In this document: positions 23,408-29,294 of the stretch, piece after piece
How positions within the stretch are numbered: the stretch's first letter is position 1
Layout: the number at the start of each line of letters is the position of its first letter
Virus record (IMG/VR): IMGVR_UViG_3300030497_000005
Reading direction: 5' to 3' (one strand)
DNA: 41,127 nt
From: a virus
Notes under the pieces: generated by a model
What the model was told of the DNA's origin: nothing
The model's input: the letters and a program-made list of their open reading frames with translations, nothing else
The model's database searches: none
Program-made: the position numbers and the translations under genes

Positions 23408-24304
23408 ATGGGTTTCACACCAACATATCATGAAAGAAACTTAAAAAATATCGCTAATCTTGGAGACAATACAAAAAAGGCTGCTATCACTTGGTACACA
23501 TGGCTAATAGCGAATGAAATTGATGTACTTATTTATGAAACAATTCGTACACTGGAAACACAAAGAGGATACTTAGCAAGCGGGAAATCTCAAACACTTA
23601 AATCCTATCATATAGTTGGGCAAGCATTGGATTTTGTTCCTGTAGACGGAAAAACAACTTTGTGGAGTGGATATGGTAAGGCAACAATTAAAAAGGCTAT
23701 TGCTAAGGCTAAAGAACTTGGATTTGAATGGGGTGGGGATTGGAAAGGATTCATAGACCAACCACATTTGCAGTTTAACTTCAAAGGATACGACACAGAC
23801 ACATTTAAGACTAAAGGCAACACGATTACGATTTCCCTAGGTGTCAACGAAACACCAAAAGAGGACGTTGCAGCAGTTGTAAAAGATACAAAGGAAACAA
23901 TTGCAGATACTAATGGGAACCCGAATATAAAGGAATTCCAATCATTTCTTAATAACTACACGAAGAAAGCTAATTTTAAAGAGTTGGTTGTAGATGGATA
24001 CGATGGTCCCAAAACATTGGTTGCAGCAATTCGAGTTTATCAATATTTTGCAAAAGTAACTATTGATGGAGTATTCGGCGCAAAATCAAAAGCAGCTTGC
24101 CCAGTTGTAGAACCTGGAACAACATGGAGCAAATGGACTCGACTTGTTCAAGGATTGTTATACATTCACAGTTACAATCCTAATGGATTTGACGGTATAT
24201 ATGGAAAAGGTTGCACAAATGCAGTAAAAGAATTTCAGAAAGATAATGGATTAAAGGCAGATGGTGAAGCTGGACCAGCAACTTTCAGTAAATTCTTTAG
24301 TTAA
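23408..24304 (+). CDS. endolysin: M15/VanY-like peptidase plus two PG-binding repeats
   Basis: SYHIVGQALDFVP...GGDWKGFIDQPHLQF (LAS metallopeptidase His/Asp/His). C-terminal DGYDGPKT... and DGIYGKGCTNAVKEFQKDNGLKADGEAGPATF repeats. Confidence 0.9.
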   Translation: MGFTPTYHERNLKNIANLGDNTKKAAITWYTWLIANEIDVLIYETIRTLETQRGYLASGKSQTLKSYHIVGQALDFVPVDGKTTLWSGYGKATIKKAIAKAKELGFEWGGDWKGFIDQPHLQFNFKGYDTDTFKTKGNTITISLGVNETPKEDVAAVVKDTKETIADTNGNPNIKEFQSFLNNYTKKANFKELVVDGYDGPKTLVAAIRVYQYFAKVTIDGVFGAKSKAACPVVEPGTTWSKWTRLVQGLLYIHSYNPNGFDGIYGKGCTNAVKEFQKDNGLKADGEAGPATFSKFFS

Positions 24305-24308
24305 GTGA

Positions 24309-24339
24309 AAAAGCCCTTCTCGTTACGAGAGGGGCTTTT
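24309..24339. terminator. bidirectional terminator between endolysin and minus-strand cassette
   Basis: AAAGCCCTTCTCG / CGAGAGGGGCTTT stem with a 3-nt loop, A run upstream and T run downstream. Confidence 0.75.
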
Positions 24340-24625
24340 ATTCCCAAGGTGCTTTCCAATCCTCGAAAGCTATGCGTTTTTCTTTATCCAAGACAGCCTG
24401 CAGGCCAGCGGTTATGTCATGACGCGTATTGTATTTCACGCTCTTCACTTCAATATCATAAGGATACTCCCTGCGCACACGGTCAAACCATTGATAAGTC
24501 AAGCGCACAGCTTCTAAATTTGGATTAACAGCAAACTTCTTCTCATTCACTTCAAAGCTTGCACGTCTCTTTCCAATCGATTCATTTGAAGTTACATATT
24601 CCAAGTCAATCAGTATTTCTTTCAT
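24338..24625 (-). CDS. hypothetical 95-aa protein (moron-like)
   Basis: SD AAAGGA followed 9 nt later by ATG. The start overlaps the stop of the upstream mini-ORF (ATGA). No recognisable motif. Confidence 0.6.
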   Translation of the reverse strand: MKEILIDLEYVTSNESIGKRRASFEVNEKKFAVNPNLEAVRLTYQWFDRVRREYPYDIEVKSVKYNTRHDITAGLQAVLDKEKRIAFEDWKAPWE

Positions 24626-24786
24626 GTGTGCGCATCCTTTAACTGTTGTAACTGTTCTGTAGTCATTAAACCCTTATTATACGATTCTATGAATATATCA
24701 AGGATTTCAACGCTATTTGTTGCATTAACTGGAGGTTTGATGTTTGCAAGAAGGCAGTAGCGGATTAAATAGTCTGTAAGCTGCAT
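24622..24786 (-). CDS. hypothetical 54-aa protein, translationally coupled to the 95-aa ORF (not in ORF track)
   Basis: MQLTDYLIRYCLLANIKPPVNATNSVEILDIFIESYNKGLMTTEQLQQLKDAHT. SD AAAGGAG lies 11 nt upstream, and the TGA overlaps the next ATG. Confidence 0.45.
   Translation of the reverse strand: MQLTDYLIRYCLLANIKPPVNATNSVEILDIFIESYNKGLMTTEQLQQLKDAHT
24626..24637. repeat. 12-bp inverted repeat arm GTGTGCGCATCC
   Basis: Perfect reverse complement of 24918-24929. Confidence 0.95.
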
Positions 24787-24917
24787 GAAAGATGTCGCTC
24801 CTTTAGTTAGGTAAGTAATGTCTAATTTATTTCAGTATAACAGGACTCACGTTCGTTTTAAAGGATTTTTACAGGAACATTTGTTCTGTTTTTGTTTTGA
24901 GTAATTTAAACAAGGTA

Positions 24918-24929
24918 GGATGCGCACAC
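24918..24929. repeat. 12-bp inverted repeat arm GGATGCGCACAC
   Basis: Perfect reverse complement of 24626-24637, with 280 bp between the arms. Confidence 0.95.
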
Positions 24930-24942
24930 CTTAAGGGGTTAA

Positions 24943-25584
24943 CTATTTCATCTTGAAGTAAATACCTGGTGTTTTATTTACTGGAGTTTTCTTCTGTTTG
25001 TATTTTTCAATGTTTCCTTTTAAATCATGGATGCTGTTAACCTGACTAATCTTAAACGGATATTCTTCACGATTAAACTGCATGTTAAGTTTTCCGATGA
25101 TTAATACATTAGGAAACTTTTCTATAAAACCTTTTTCATAAAAAGATTTATATTTATCAAGCTTATCAGACAGTTGTTTAGTGCTAAATAAGCTGTTTTG
25201 GCACTCTATAAACCATTTCCTTCCTAACCAATCTGCAAAGCCGTCAGAAATGAAATCTGCGCCTTCTAGCTTACGCTCAACCTCAAATGAAGTTTTCCTA
25301 TCGTAGCTCAACATATCTACATATGTTTGACCAATCATCAAATGGTGGTCAAGTTTTGCAGAATTTATTTTAATAGCAGAGGGATTTAGGTAGTATAAAT
25401 AATGTTGAAAAGGTCGGTCTGTATTTGCTTGTATATAGCCATCTTGTCGTAATCGTTTTAACACGCGGTTTGCTGTTTTCAGTGGATCTGCATTACTTGA
25501 GAAGTGAAGCGCAGCTATCATTTTAGAGTCCATTACTTTAAATTTTTCTAAGGTACTCAGTATCTCTAAATCTCTTTTTCTCAT
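24943..25584 (-). CDS. replication-relaxation family protein
   Basis: N-terminal winged-helix-like MRKRDLEILSTLEKFKVMDSKMIAALHF...ANRVLKRLRQDGYIQ. SD TAGGAGTG followed by ATG 25584 (track start 25629). Lies 13 nt after the FtsK stop. Confidence 0.7.
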   Translation of the reverse strand: MRKRDLEILSTLEKFKVMDSKMIAALHFSSNADPLKTANRVLKRLRQDGYIQANTDRPFQHYLYYLNPSAIKINSAKLDHHLMIGQTYVDMLSYDRKTSFEVERKLEGADFISDGFADWLGRKWFIECQNSLFSTKQLSDKLDKYKSFYEKGFIEKFPNVLIIGKLNMQFNREEYPFKISQVNSIHDLKGNIEKYKQKKTPVNKTPGIYFKMK

Positions 25585-25597
25585 GATGTACACACTC

Positions 25598-26761
25598 CTA
25601 TGCAAATAAATCATCATTAGGGTTTTCATTTAATTCTGGTAAAGGTTCATTTACATTCTTAGCAGGGCCTTTCATGATACAGTAAGGGTTTAATATTTTT
25701 TTAGCTTCCTTAAAGGTTAAATGAGGACTTTGAAGCTCCATCAATTCTCCAGCATTTAAAATTAATCGTCCCATTTGGTCGAGCTTAATCTTTTCGGCTC
25801 CTTTTGTACCAAGTAACATGGCATTTGTTTTGTCTACTGTTCGGAAGCTCATACGAATACTAAAATTACTTCTTGCTTTCGTATTCATCACATCTGCATC
25901 CATCCGTTGTGCAGAAGCAAGTAATAGTACACCTGTTGCACGTCCTTTGCTAGTTATCTTTATTATGTTTTGCATTATTTCTTTATGGTCCATGTATTCA
26001 ATAAACTCATCAACAGCAACTAAAATTATTTTCTGCTTATGCTCAGGTGGTAAATCCGTTACATGCGGTACTTCATAAAGATCCAAAAGTTCTTCTCTTC
26101 TGTACATCTCTTTAACCACTTTATTTAAAACCTTGTGCGCATCTCTGGCCGAATAAACTACCTGTTGCACATGCTCTACCTTTTTGAACAAACCGAACTC
26201 AGCCCTTTTTCCATCAATACAATAGATATCTAGTTCAGATGGCTTTTTATATTGGATGAGCGTAGACAGAATGACACGAATAGAGGAGCTTTTACCACTT
26301 CCACTTGCTCCTTGAATAATGACATGAGGAAAATCTAAATTCTCTAGTACAATGTACTGTCCGTTGTTTTTCTTACCAACAACAATTGGCATAATCATTT
26401 CATCTAAATAGGGGGCTATTTCCTTGTAATTATAGAGAAGGTTTGATTTTAGAGGATTATCATATATGGTAAGTGTAAATGTTTTGGTATCACCTTTCAG
26501 AGCAATTGCGTTACCAAATATTTGTTCAAACACATAGTACTTCTTCATAGTCATTTCCTTTGGATCTAAGCCATTCAGTAAAGAAAACACTATTTCTGTG
26601 CAATTCTCCTTATCTTTACGCTTTATAGAATGAATGGGAGGGTATGCATAAATTGATTTATCGCCAAGTTTAGATGTCATAAACAAACCCGATCGCCTGA
26701 AAAATTGTTTTAATTTATATCTGTATTTAGTTTTAAACAATTGCTGTTGAATGTAGTTCAT
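25598..26761 (-). CDS. FtsK/SpoIIIE-family DNA translocase / coupling-protein-like ATPase
   Basis: Walker A GASGSGKSS, Walker B KIILVAVDEF, soluble N-terminus; SD GAGGTG. Confidence 0.9.
   Translation of the reverse strand: MNYIQQQLFKTKYRYKLKQFFRRSGLFMTSKLGDKSIYAYPPIHSIKRKDKENCTEIVFSLLNGLDPKEMTMKKYYVFEQIFGNAIALKGDTKTFTLTIYDNPLKSNLLYNYKEIAPYLDEMIMPIVVGKKNNGQYIVLENLDFPHVIIQGASGSGKSSSIRVILSTLIQYKKPSELDIYCIDGKRAEFGLFKKVEHVQQVVYSARDAHKVLNKVVKEMYRREELLDLYEVPHVTDLPPEHKQKIILVAVDEFIEYMDHKEIMQNIIKITSKGRATGVLLLASAQRMDADVMNTKARSNFSIRMSFRTVDKTNAMLLGTKGAEKIKLDQMGRLILNAGELMELQSPHLTFKEAKKILNPYCIMKGPAKNVNEPLPELNENPNDDLFA
26134..26143. repeat. third copy of TGTGCGCATC
   Basis: Identical 10-mer to 24627-24636, located inside the FtsK-like gene. 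Confidence 0.9.
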
Positions 26762-26778
26762 TTCTGCACCTCACAAAA

Positions 26779-27114
26779 TTAAAATGTATGGATTATCCCT
26801 AAATAAAGGAACAGATAAAAGGCCATTGGAAATAGAAGCTTAGTGGTCATAGCAATAGCATCCGCAACTATTTCATTGCCTGTGCTTCGGAAGAAATATT
26901 CTCCTGCAATGCTAAGAATAGCAACTGCAAACACTCCAAAGACAACAAAGAACGGCTCATTAAATGGCGATCCCCATATATCGGAGTGAGTGATATCTAT
27001 ACCTGCAATTCCATATAATCGTAAAGGGTGTGCTCTGGTAATTTCTTTAGGCTGGTCGGCTGTTAGAAATTCCTTTATAGAGGACACCTTTTTTATTTTC
27101 GTCATGTATAACAT
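26779..27114 (-). CDS. small membrane protein (2-3 TM)
   Basis: FFVVFGVFAVAILSIAGEYFF and LLFPMAFYLFLYLGIIHTF hydrophobic segments. SD AAAGGATGA. Lies 17 nt upstream of the FtsK start. Confidence 0.65.
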   Translation of the reverse strand: MLYMTKIKKVSSIKEFLTADQPKEITRAHPLRLYGIAGIDITHSDIWGSPFNEPFFVVFGVFAVAILSIAGEYFFRSTGNEIVADAIAMTTKLLFPMAFYLFLYLGIIHTF

Positions 27115-27157
27115 AGGTGATCATCCTTTTTTCATTATTTCATCGTGCTTATCCTAA

Positions 27158-27439
27158 CTAAACAAAAAGTAGGCAAATGAAATCCATAACAAACTGAACA
27201 GCATGCAGAATTATTTCGGATTTATAGAAACCTATTGTGTCCGAGATGTTATGTCCTTCTTGTACGAAGCTATCTAAAATAAACTTACTGTTATCAAGGA
27301 GTGTATCTGGTCTACTTATTAAATAATCTTTCGTAAGAGTCCAAAGATGAGTAGGTACAGGTTGCATGCCGTTCTCTATAGCTTGATGAATTCTTTCGTA
27401 ATCACCTGACATTGCTACACTGTTAATACGTATTAACAT
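27158..27439 (-). CDS. hypothetical protein with hydrophobic C-terminus
   Basis: First gene of the minus-strand operon. ATG 27439 lies 10 nt after AAAGGA (track start GTG 27448). Confidence 0.55.
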   Translation of the reverse strand: MLIRINSVAMSGDYERIHQAIENGMQPVPTHLWTLTKDYLISRPDTLLDNSKFILDSFVQEGHNISDTIGFYKSEIILHAVQFVMDFICLLFV

Positions 27440-27756
27440 CCGAAGCACATCCTTTTTAATTTTTGGTTTCCCCCTCGCGCTCCCCCTTCCCCATTCGCTC
27501 CTTTCTCTCGCTCTTAATCTTTTTAAAAATGTTTATTCTATTGGATTGGACAATATAAAACTATGGTTAGGTTAACTAGAGTATTATCTGTTGATATAAC
27601 TAGGGTTGGAACTATAGTTTCGCTTGATGGTAAAGTATATACGGACTACTTGGACCAGTTTCCTAATTAGTACATAAAATTTTCAAAATTATAACGTATA
27701 GATTTCTTTGTTCTTGTCCAAACAATAAGTATGAATACATTAAGGGAGCGGTAAAT

Positions 27757-27987
27757 ATGTTTGGATTATTCGAAGGGAAACCAAGAACAAAGATTGGTAG
27801 GTTCTTAGATCAACGCGGAATTACTCAGGAGTGGTTAGCAGCAAAAACAAAGGTTAACCGTAATACAATAAGCAGGATTGCCAGTGATAAAGATTATGAA
27901 CCTCGTTTATCAACCATTAAGAAACTAATGAAGGCTATTAATGAAGTTGATCCTAACAAAAAGATGGATGATTTCTTTGATTTATAA
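27757..27987 (+). CDS. XRE-type HTH regulator (76 aa)
   Basis: GRFLDQRGITQEWLAAKTKVNRNTISRIASDKD is a helix-turn-helix motif. Divergent from the FtsK operon. Confidence 0.75.
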   Translation: MFGLFEGKPRTKIGRFLDQRGITQEWLAAKTKVNRNTISRIASDKDYEPRLSTIKKLMKAINEVDPNKKMDDFFDL

Positions 27988-28013
27988 AGGTATTTCATTC
28001 TTGTATGTGTAAT

Positions 28014-28040
28014 AAAAGACACTAATAACAAGTGTCTTTT
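28014..28040 (+). terminator. terminator after HTH gene
   Basis: AAAAGACACT / AGTGTCTTTT perfect 10-bp stem with a 7-nt loop. Confidence 0.75.
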
Positions 28041-28044
28041 AATT

Positions 28045-28098
28045 TTGTATACTTTTGTAATACACACTATTGCAAAATGTAATACAAAAGTATACAAT
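28045..28098 (+). promoter_or_regulatory. par promoter embedded in centromere-like inverted repeat (parC candidate)
   Basis: Perfect 15-bp inverted repeat TTGTATACTTTTGTA (28045-28059) / TACAAAAGTATACAA (28083-28097). It encloses -35 TTGCAA (28070-28075), a 17-nt spacer and -10 TACAAT (28093-28098). GTAATA(C/A)A motifs are repeated at 28009, 28057, 28079 and 28109. Confidence 0.5.
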
Positions 28099-28142
28099 TA
28101 CTTCAAAAGTAATAAAACACATTGAGAATGGAGTTGGTTTTA

Positions 28143-29294
28143 ATGTTTAGAATAGGAGCTATTGATAGTGGATTTGATGCATTAAAAGGCTATATCGGCG
28201 GAGTAAAAGAAGAGAATAAGGTTTATATTCCGAACGTAATTAAGGAGCTGAATAGAGACGAATCTTTAGGATCTGGAGAAGGAGCAGCAATTGATGAATT
28301 GCATGTTAGGGTAACGAGTGATGCTCTTACTACAAAGAACAATACCAGCTATGCAGTGGGGAATTTCGCTTCTCGCTTTTCAACAGCAGATCAAGGAGCT
28401 GCTACAGATAGAAAAGGGGATTCAGACCAAACAATTATTTTAATTCTTACAGCCCTTGCTTTAGATGCAGCTACATGCGGTCAATTCAATCAAGAATCAG
28501 ACTTGATAAACGCAAAATACTTATTAAGCACTGGCTTACCGATTGACGAAAGTAAGAAAAAAGGAGCTCGTAAAGCATTTGCCAGCAAGTTAAAAGATGG
28601 GATGCACCAAGTCCAATTTTTAGAGACTCCTGGTCTTAAAGGTAAAACAGTAAGAATTTCCTTCGAAGATGTATATGTAAATTCTGAAGGCCATGCAGCA
28701 ATGGTTAACTTAACAGTAAGCGATGATTTTAAAACGAGAAATGAAGATCTTTTACAAAAGAATGTGCTCCTTGATGATATGGGAGGAATAACAACTGATT
28801 TTGCAGTCATAAGAAAAGGAAGTATCGATAATGAAAACTCAGAGGGTATTCCATTAGGAATCGGTGAGACTTTAGATGAAATTATCCGTAAAGTACACAG
28901 TGAGCACCGTTACCGTTTTAAAACTAGACGTGACCTAATTAATAACATTACAAGGGATGAAAAAGCATATATTGTTCGTCCTCAAGTCGAGGAAGTAGAC
29001 ATAAAGAAAACGGTAAATGATATCCTTGAAGTATTCGCACAAGAACAATTCATTGAAATAAAAAGAATGTGGAGCAAAGTAAATGATCTGGACGTTATTA
29101 TTTGTGTAGGTGGAACAGCATACTTATTAAAAGAATTTATAGAGGAATTGAATAGCAACATTAACTACCCTATACAGTTCGCAGATAGTGCAGAAGAAAG
29201 CATTTGGAGTATTGCTAAAGCTTATTATAAACTGCTATTCCTTAAAGCTAAAAACGCTGGTTATACAGAAGAACAATTATTAGTTATAGGATGA
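28143..29294 (+). CDS. parM: actin-like segregation ATPase (ParM/Alp family)
   Basis: Actin-fold motifs: phosphate 1 GAIDSGFDALKG, phosphate 2 LLDDMGGITTDFAVI, adenosine ICVGGTAYLL. SD GGAG followed 9 nt later by ATG 28143. Confidence 0.85.
   Translation: MFRIGAIDSGFDALKGYIGGVKEENKVYIPNVIKELNRDESLGSGEGAAIDELHVRVTSDALTTKNNTSYAVGNFASRFSTADQGAATDRKGDSDQTIILILTALALDAATCGQFNQESDLINAKYLLSTGLPIDESKKKGARKAFASKLKDGMHQVQFLETPGLKGKTVRISFEDVYVNSEGHAAMVNLTVSDDFKTRNEDLLQKNVLLDDMGGITTDFAVIRKGSIDNENSEGIPLGIGETLDEIIRKVHSEHRYRFKTRRDLINNITRDEKAYIVRPQVEEVDIKKTVNDILEVFAQEQFIEIKRMWSKVNDLDVIICVGGTAYLLKEFIEELNSNINYPIQFADSAEESIWSIAKAYYKLLFLKAKNAGYTEEQLLVIG

Follow-up and report, generated by a model that had tools for sequence, protein, structure and literature searches.

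We analysed a gene cassette carried by a complete virus genome of 41,127 bp with terminal repeats (IMG/VR record IMGVR_UViG_3300030497_000005), which in its whole length is called the window here. The cassette contained a MOBC/Replic_Relax nuclease, a double-stranded DNA motor with the FtsK/TcpA fold and a conserved protein with two transmembrane segments, and an array of repeats phased at about 12 bp was found just upstream. We consider that these parts may form a self-contained, membrane-anchored cassette for DNA translocation, which acts in cis and serves spore entry more likely than conjugation; the probability of this reading is put at about 0.35. A nuclease with a site in cis, a motor without a domain for reading DNA and a membrane protein stand together, and would form a module that processes the DNA of its own element and moves it at a membrane.

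A minimal DNA-translocation module had been suggested in an earlier note on this DNA, and the suggestion fits the anatomy found here (two-transmembrane protein, FtsK/TcpA-fold motor, MOBC nuclease and repeat array). That note took the module as a feature of a phage-plasmid, which did not hold: the cassette is portable, and exists also in integrated prophages, megaplasmids and a strictly lytic phi29-like phage. The four tightly packed minus-strand open reading frames (ORFs) that the note described, opposite to the virion genes, were all confirmed. The genes are real, but a unit of four genes left undescribed a divergent HTH_3 gene and a control region of 308 bp. The copy in the window is a divergent member of a common and already annotated cassette, with nothing fundamentally new in itself. 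New here are the phased repeats that track the nuclease, the mirror repeat G5-AGCGCGA-G5, the two-transmembrane partner present in about 48 of 54 loci, and the argument drawn from the lytic phage DLc1.

Nuclease, motor and membrane protein

The gene at 24943-25584 (minus strand) encodes a replication-relaxation protein of 213 amino acids, which matched the Pfam family Replic_Relax (PF13814, the MOBC family; 1.9e-14, 54.6 bits against a cut-off of 25.3) and PHROG 2190. The open frame reaches 25629; the best start is the ATG at 25584, located behind a GGAG ribosome-binding site, and gives the 213 residues of the winged-helix protein named in the earlier note. In the AlphaFold2 model (predicted local distance difference test, pLDDT, 90), an N-terminal winged helix is followed by a C-terminal PD-(D/E)XK nuclease domain, and Foldseek matched it with Bax1, Card1/Can2, McrC, NucS and winged-helix repressors of the MecI/MarR type. 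This fold agrees with the published placement of Replic_Relax in the PD-(D/E)XK superfamily (PMC3424549). Residues H80, E103, P113-D114, E127-x-Q129, K141 and Y145 were invariant in 26 homologues and are also kept in BtCS33, pBtic360, GBSV1 and DLc1. Such an intact catalytic set across the homologues suggests that nuclease activity is under selection.

Coluzzi et al. equated Rel_PF13814 with MobC (PMC5357655). TraX of pAD1 and MobC of CloDF13 are restriction-endonuclease-like relaxases; the former carries a winged helix at its N-terminus and binds to five direct repeats located 70-120 bp from nic (PMC12857230). The only characterised PF13814 members are nickases of the origin of transfer (oriT), and they act next to a hexameric coupling ATPase. 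In pTEF1, the TraX homologue, called 'replication-relaxation family protein', scored 28.5 bits on PF13814; its plasmid is typed MOBC, and its gene adjoins that of a 737-residue VirD4-type protein inside the transfer region. Direct profile alignment of the window nuclease with this homologue was weak (probability 32%) and covered the winged helix and the first helix only. TraX has an essential tyrosine, Y181, and a tyrosine is invariant in the window family too (Y145, together with K141), but the alignment, restricted to these helices, does not pair the two. By its sequence, the nuclease is a distant member of the MOBC relaxase family, and nicking by this subfamily is putative.

Like TraX of pAD1/pTEF1 (with TraW and oriT2) and MobC/MobB of CloDF13, the window combines a PF13814 profile, a winged helix and a PD-(D/E)XK domain; the nuclease gene stands beside that of a hexameric ATPase of the FtsK/VirD4 superfamily, and short direct repeats lie near the operon. 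The partner in those systems, however, is the 737-residue VirD4-type protein with its own membrane domain, encoded in a type IV secretion system (T4SS) cluster, whereas the window has an FtsK alpha-beta motor with a separate two-transmembrane protein and neither a VirD4-type partner nor a T4SS. We found no match to the VirB4-like, MOBP and MOBT families in the genome, HUH was likewise absent, and the only VirD4 match was a sub-threshold one of 13 bits on the P-loop of the motor itself. The statement of the earlier note that canonical relaxase and T4SS genes are missing is thus right for VirB4, VirD4, HUH and MOBT, but PF13814 is itself the MOBC relaxase family.

The gene at 25598-26761 (minus strand) encodes an FtsK/SpoIIIE-type alpha-beta motor ATPase of 387 amino acids (Pfam FtsK_SpoIIIE, 4e-24; PHROG 1358, 3e-72). 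Among PDB sequences, FtsK (1e-18) was a better match than TcpA (1.7e-11). The AlphaFold2 model (pLDDT 86, with a disordered tail beyond residue 360) aligned over its whole length to the DNA-bound FtsK motor 6t8g with a TM-score of 0.68; the TM-scores to the TcpA soluble domain were 0.67-0.71 for 6o1z and 0.62-0.71 over 6o1w, 6o1x and 6o1z. Walker A (G151-S158), Walker B (D251-E252) and Q285-R286 were invariant in 28 homologues, and the last pair is of the kind expected for an arginine finger. The ATPase had been described as lacking transmembrane segments, and we found no hydrophobic segment, no N-terminal membrane domain and no gamma domain in it. The 45 homologues were all of 378-419 amino acids, except three short, fragment-like sequences.

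The motor was compared with several known machines. SpoIIIE/FtsK gave the best sequence and fold match, with Walker A/B and Q285-R286 conserved, but the window protein has none of the four-transmembrane N-terminal domain, the linker and the gamma domain that reads the SpoIIIE recognition sequence (SRS) or the FtsK orienting polar sequence (KOPS). Without a gamma domain, sequence recognition would fall to the separate winged-helix nuclease. TcpA, known from pCW3 and from integrative and conjugative elements (ICEs) and integrative and mobilisable elements (IMEs) of Bacillota, has the same soluble FtsK-like alpha-beta fold (TM-score about 0.7 to 6o1z), and its gene lies directly upstream of a non-canonical relaxase gene, as here (PMC5357655). 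Unlike the window protein, TcpA carries its transmembrane helices N-terminally in the one chain and operates together with an MPF-FA T4SS; in the window, neither these helices nor an MPF-FA T4SS, IME or ICE setting was found. The partner relaxases of TcpA are MOBT, MOBM or Rep-related, not MOBC (PMC5357655, PMC12857230). Streptomyces TraB-clt is similar in joining an FtsK-like hexameric double-stranded DNA pump with a short direct-repeat array on its own plasmid, but TraB reads clt by its own C-terminal winged helix and needs no nuclease; the motor scored 22.7 bits against the cut-off of 800 for NCBIfam plasmid_TraB.

The third conserved gene (26779-27114, minus strand) encodes the partner of the ATPase, a membrane protein of 111 amino acids. 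The earlier note gave it two to three transmembrane segments; that it is a membrane protein was borne out, and two hydrophobic segments were counted (about residues 49-76 and 93-111). The protein falls into no family, but it is conserved: F16, E72 and G79 were invariant in 30 homologues. Through a profile search of 1.84 billion representatives we obtained 25 relatives, nearly all of 87-116 amino acids; these were small stand-alone proteins only, none fused to an ATPase, and the idea of a split TcpA was rejected. In the protein atlas only unnamed Bacillota clusters were matched. The small membrane protein of Andromeda-like Bacillus phages has been labelled TrbC/VirB2 pilin-like (PMC9658697); none of the 30 subfamily members matched the TrbC/VirB2 pilin profile, even at E up to 1. 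A Pfam match to SpoIIIAC/AD in one of the 30 homologues (E 0.018) was treated as noise.

Repeat array and G-rich leader in the control region

The structured control region of 308 bp lies between the HTH_3 gene and orf96, the first gene of the cassette. It contains a degenerate phased direct-repeat array at 27535-27620 (minus strand) with units of AAC(N2-3)TAGTT, whose ends are 12, 24 and 15 bp apart and are accompanied by weaker in-phase copies. The hexamer [CA]TAGTT reaches 5 per 100 nt at this position, the highest density in the whole window (41 copies in the genome, both strands); this density and the homology with clearer arrays define the window array. Ten TAYCANGGTA units, at spacings of 12 or 24 bp, are present in BtCS33 and four in pBtic360. 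In DLc1, six contiguous 12-bp repeats (TTACYNNGGTAG, 24433-24505) lie between the packaging ATPase gene and the cassette and share the motif family of the BtCS33 array. With a strict detector (8-mers, at most one mismatch), phased arrays of at least three units were found upstream of 17 of 56 cassettes, compared with 3/56 in shuffled and 4/56 in coding controls.

The repeat type could be compared with the two DNA-binding proteins encoded nearby. BtCS33 and pBtic360 have TAYCANGGTA in common, and their nucleases are 73% identical while their helix-turn-helix (HTH) proteins are 30% identical; the window and its closest relative L006 have AACTATAG-type units in common, with nucleases 68% and HTH proteins 39% identical. 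In DLc1 the array is present without an HTH gene. The recognition-helix sequences split into the same two classes as the repeats. Because the repeat type tracks the recognition helix of the nuclease and not the HTH regulator, the array is a candidate nuclease site, and from these five cassettes with two repeat classes we infer that it may be bound by the winged helix.

A second element is a polypurine leader of 55 nt at 27464-27519 (minus strand), which aligns with those of L008, L011, L012 and L013 and contains the mirror repeat GGGGG-AGCGCGA-GGGGG at 27470-27486. This mirror repeat, or a G5-N3-7-G5 variant, was found upstream of 22 of the 56 cassettes, from Geobacillus to Niallia and including GBSV1. 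The leader with the mirror repeat also occurs at L001 near 4622, and at L020, L023, L024, L035, L039 and others. Within the 1.46 Mb of flanking sequence, the strict 10-mer GAGCGCGA[GT]G was confined to 11 upstream regions; copies of the BtCS33 type had no G-rich motif. RNAalifold predicted no pairs in the leader, and it had no Rfam match. Homopurine mirror repeats can form triplex DNA. The G-rich mirror repeat may serve for cleavage, as an element of the RNA or as a tract that loads ribosomes.

The leader also touches an annotation in GBSV1 (L001, 4568-5002). The start of the 144-residue ORF0041 is probably annotated too far upstream; its Arg/Gly-rich N-terminus is the translated G-rich leader motif, and the homologues have about 110 amino acids.

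Two further elements were seen in the control region. A 27-nt box (AAACTGGTCCAAGTAGTCCGTATATAC, 27635-27661, minus strand) is near-identical in the window and L006 with different flanks, and is probably a promoter or operator element. The region also holds a TTGTCC box.

Distribution and possible function of the cassette

By tblastn, 258 phage and 1,070 plasmid records contain the ATPase, whereas the nuclease was matched in 26 from phages and 221 from plasmids, all from Bacillales. The trio occurs in integrated prophages of Bacillaceae and Paenibacillaceae, in megaplasmids and in the lytic phage DLc1. The order (a divergent HTH gene, a small protein, an ATPase of about 390 residues and a nuclease of about 210 residues) is constant in GBSV1, BtCS33, the prophage-like plasmid pBac41, Cytobacillus and Rossellomorea prophages and metagenomic contigs. 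Bacillus-group cassettes comparable with that of the window are BtCS33 gp21-23, GBSV1 ORF41-43, phiCM3, PfEFR-4/5, MY192, 268TH007, phi18-2, DLc1 gp12-10 and pBtic360. They have in common with it the two-transmembrane protein, ATPase and PF13814 protein in this order, the upstream array, usually the divergent HTH gene, and the position after the lysis genes. The window proteins are only 31-45% identical to the deposited Bacillus-group proteins, and the window differs from copies of the BtCS33 type in having orf96, other repeat units and the G-rich leader. The closest relatives (62-68% identical) are metagenomic or of the Neobacillus, Cytobacillus and Heyndrickxia type; the nearest, L006, is another phage-plasmid bearing arbitrium and ParM. 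At the DNA level, the 3.7-kb region matched none of the phages and plasmids searched.

The pairing of ATPase and nuclease is obligatory: across 58 loci taken from species-representative genomes, each intact locus had the ATPase gene immediately ahead of that for the nuclease. About 48 of 54 intact loci had the small two-transmembrane ORF just in front of the ATPase gene. Usually the block follows the lysis genes directly and is itself followed by the integrase, the lysogeny module or the prophage end; in a megaplasmid of the pBtic360 type the cassette stands alone among metabolic genes. We also tallied the Pfam families of the largest neighbours in 49 loci, listing the 25 commonest families of each flank. 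Upstream there were about 21 endolysins, together with integrases, resolvases, ParM or TubZ, and the downstream flank gave ImmA, antirepressor, integrase and host genes. Neither list of 25 contained a T4SS family.

The most informative carrier is DLc1, a phi29-like phage of Salasmaviridae with a terminal protein, a type-B polymerase, packaging RNA (pRNA) and inverted terminal repeats, and without lysogeny genes. Its late operon ends with the genes of a 79-residue two-transmembrane protein, the ATPase and the nuclease, and none of the catalytic residues has been lost. Conjugative transfer, plasmid replication or partition make little sense in such a phage. All named carriers are endospore formers, and SpoIVA, used as a proxy for sporulation, was encoded in 25 of 25 nuclease-positive genomes (16 strong matches) compared with 272 of 401 sampled genomes of the class, figures that are not corrected for phylogeny; this co-occurrence is unlikely if the cassette and SpoIVA are independent.

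Some Bacillus-type cassettes (H9/H10, H22, P0063, P0078, L043) are filed under other names: Staphylococcus phage SpaA1, Stenotrophomonas phage TS-12, Shigella flexneri, Mycobacteroides abscessus and Pseudoxanthomonas sp. J31. These host labels are probably mislabels or contamination.

In the translocation mechanism that we propose, the winged helix of the nuclease would bind the repeat array, and the nuclease would nick or cut nearby, perhaps at the G-rich mirror repeat, and load or orient the hexameric motor. The two-transmembrane protein would hold the motor at the membrane, and the motor would pump phage or plasmid DNA across or along it. With less support than these steps, the membrane may be the sporulation or division septum, with the DNA passing into the forespore, rather than a conjugative pore. 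Entry into the spore is consistent with carriers that are endospore formers, with SpoIVA in all 25 genomes, with a lytic carrier of linear genome and with neighbours from the lysis and lysogeny modules, the commonest of which include no T4SS family. Sporulation control or DNA translocation has been proposed several times for these genes (PMC3359378, PMC4113786, PMC4197329, PMC4528723), and the ideas of transfer and of spore delivery, both raised in the earlier note, already exist in the literature as speculation (PMC3359378, PMC4113786, PMC4197329).

Several points weigh against a translocation cassette serving the spore. The literature on the cassette is speculative (PMC3359378, PMC4113786, PMC4528723), and contacts among the three proteins are putative. 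The subfamily lives in Bacillales, so that phylogeny confounds the link with spore formers. A prophage that is integrated enters the forespore with the chromosome and would need no pump, and septal transport has no obvious need of a nuclease. The FtsK-like gene of phage Fah is one of the delayed genes of lytic growth (PMC4113786), and this suggests that it functions in ordinary infection. The degenerate array of the window itself was not picked up by the strict detector. A sigma-70 scan of 27449-27756 revealed no promoter on the cassette strand, where sporulation-sigma promoters were not systematically screened, and the exact Spo0A box TGTCGAA was not enriched upstream of the 56 cassettes (ratio 1.2). 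TGTCCAA was enriched 3.3-fold there, and is explained more simply as a -35 or operator element than as a Spo0A box. Forespore delivery agrees with the distribution judged by SpoIVA, but no sporulation promoter or Spo0A-box enrichment was found to go with it.

In its most specific form, the translocation reading describes a split SpoIIIE-like machine of mobile elements of endospore formers, in which the relaxase-family nuclease would recognise the array, process the mirror repeat, which could form a triplex, and pass the DNA to the membrane-anchored FtsK motor for pumping into the forespore. We hold this form only tentatively, as somewhat less probable than the general one.

Conjugative mobilisation is unlikely, and ranks below the spore machine. 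It would make the nuclease a MOBC-type relaxase, the array and G-rich site an oriT, and the motor with its two-transmembrane protein a private coupling protein; the nicked phage-plasmid would dock on the T4SS of a co-resident ICE or plasmid, like CloDF13 mobB-mobC or streptococcal IMEs. PF13814 membership is indeed common to the window nuclease and the MOBC-typed TraX homologue beside a VirD4-type coupling protein, relaxase and coupling-protein genes are typically adjacent (PMC12857230), and IMEs carry TcpA with a non-canonical relaxase (PMC5357655). The motor fold is also the TcpA fold, and the direct repeats near the operon resemble the binding site of TraX. However, the cassette is intact in DLc1, whose DNA is linear and capped by terminal protein, and no T4SS or conjugation family was found among the commonest neighbours of the 49 loci or in this genome. 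The carriers are overwhelmingly phages, MOB-suite typed carriers such as pBac41 as non-mobilizable, the profile comparison with the TraX homologue was weak (32%, winged helix only), and MOBC relaxases normally pair with VirD4-type rather than FtsK-type proteins (PMC5357655). Cell-to-cell transfer without virions, one of the two roles offered in the earlier note, is weakened because it makes little sense for a lytic carrier with a linear genome and because the commonest neighbour families of the 49 loci include no T4SS family.

Exclusion or conflict is lower still in our estimation. The motor and nuclease, tethered to the membrane, might attack incoming or competing DNA, and the array would be only an autoregulatory operator. 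The place of the cassette, behind the lysis genes and ahead of the prophage end or lysogeny module, is a classic accessory position, all kinds of mobile element carry it, a lytic phage among them, and a private repressor-like gene is present. An FtsK/HerA-type ATPase with a PD-(D/E)XK nuclease is a known defence architecture, HerA-DUF4297 and SIR2-HerA were among the distant fold matches, and Steczkiewicz et al. predicted a regulator role for Replic_Relax (PMC3424549). On the other hand, PADLOC gave no match for the nuclease and the membrane protein and only generic FtsK domains (of SspH and mad8) for the ATPase, up to ten phased repeats are unusual for a simple operator, and the characterised family members act on their own element.

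Replication or segregation, in which the nuclease would nick the array for a rolling-circle start or switch, or mark a centromere-like site, and the motor would clear or separate sister copies at the closing septum like FtsK, is just as improbable as exclusion. In its favour, the nuclease bears the label 'replication initiation protein' in RefSeq and PHROG, repeats phased at 11-12 bp look like iterons and parC centromeres, ParM or TubZ genes stand next to the cassette in the window and several relatives, and the Fah ATPase gene shares the delayed class with replication-phase genes (PMC4113786). Against it, an initiator and a ParM system of its own are present in this phage-plasmid, replication genes of the DnaD or DnaC type occur in integrative carriers, replication of DLc1 is protein-primed, the 'replication' in the family name traces to a sequence paper on a cryptic plasmid and not to an assay, and the conserved membrane protein is left unexplained.

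Neighbouring genes and significance of the cassette

The minus-strand block lies between the endolysin gene (23408-24304, plus strand) and a ParM/Alp7A-like partition gene (28122-29294), with its genes closely packed in the direction opposite to the virion and lysis genes. The genome also encodes AimR. The divergent gene at 27757-27987 (plus strand) encodes an HTH_3 regulator of Cro/CI type with 76 amino acids (Pfam HTH_3, 2.8e-9). A small divergent HTH gene occupies the same position in GBSV1, BtCS33, pBac41, pBtic360, L006, L008, L011 and L012, and is absent from DLc1; it is the private regulator of the cassette.

The first cassette gene, orf96 (27158-27448, minus strand), is lineage-specific. 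The earlier note called it orf93: 93 amino acids are obtained from the ATG at 27439, but the open frame gives 96 from the GTG at 27448. Homologues were found only in close relatives, such as a 146-residue gene of L006 at the same position (28% identity, QEG-NIS motif in common), and no match was found in Pfam, PHROG, NCBIfam or PADLOC.

On the other side of the nuclease gene are two conserved small minus-strand genes of 54 (24622-24786) and 95 amino acids (24338-24625), without a family match, which are 48% and 70% identical to the 56- and 94-residue genes of L006. In L006, two genes on the opposite strand stand between the nuclease gene and this pair, and a promoter-like site lies ahead of the pair in the window (24862-24834). 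Since they are detached from the cassette in the closest relative, orf54 and orf95 are probably a separate unit downstream of it. A bidirectional terminator hairpin at 24309-24339, recognised from an inverted repeat and terminator-like sites on both strands, is common to the cassette side and the endolysin gene.

The 8-mer TGTGCGCA was found in four copies (24472-24479, 24627-24634, 24921-24928 and 26134-26141), all within 1.7 kb; 0.45 copies are expected, and none of 100 shuffles reached four. Two copies form a 12-bp inverted repeat around the orf54 region (24626-24637 and 24918-24929) that had been pointed out before; its 10-mer was not significant (8/100 shuffles), but the 8-mer is over-represented. 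One copy is fixed by a conserved coding stretch, DRVRR, present in L006 too. Just upstream of the ParM/Alp7A-like gene, a near-perfect 20-nt palindrome (28045-28097, 95% complementary, 13 nt between the arms) is probably a partition operator or centromere-like site; Rfam on 24200-28200 gave only chance-level microRNA matches, on this palindrome.

The cassette is among the commonest accessory modules of phages and plasmids of the Bacillus group, including phages of the B. cereus group, and has successively carried the labels cell division, replication initiation, sporulation control and conjugation. Its phased repeats and G-rich mirror repeat are concrete substrates for biochemistry. If the cassette mobilised phage genomes by conjugation, the line between transduction and conjugation would be blurred. 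Transport of DNA into spores, if that is its role, would account for the persistence of non-integrated elements through dormancy, and with a split SpoIIIE-like machine, lytic phages, prophages in lytic growth and low-copy plasmids would secure a place in the spore.

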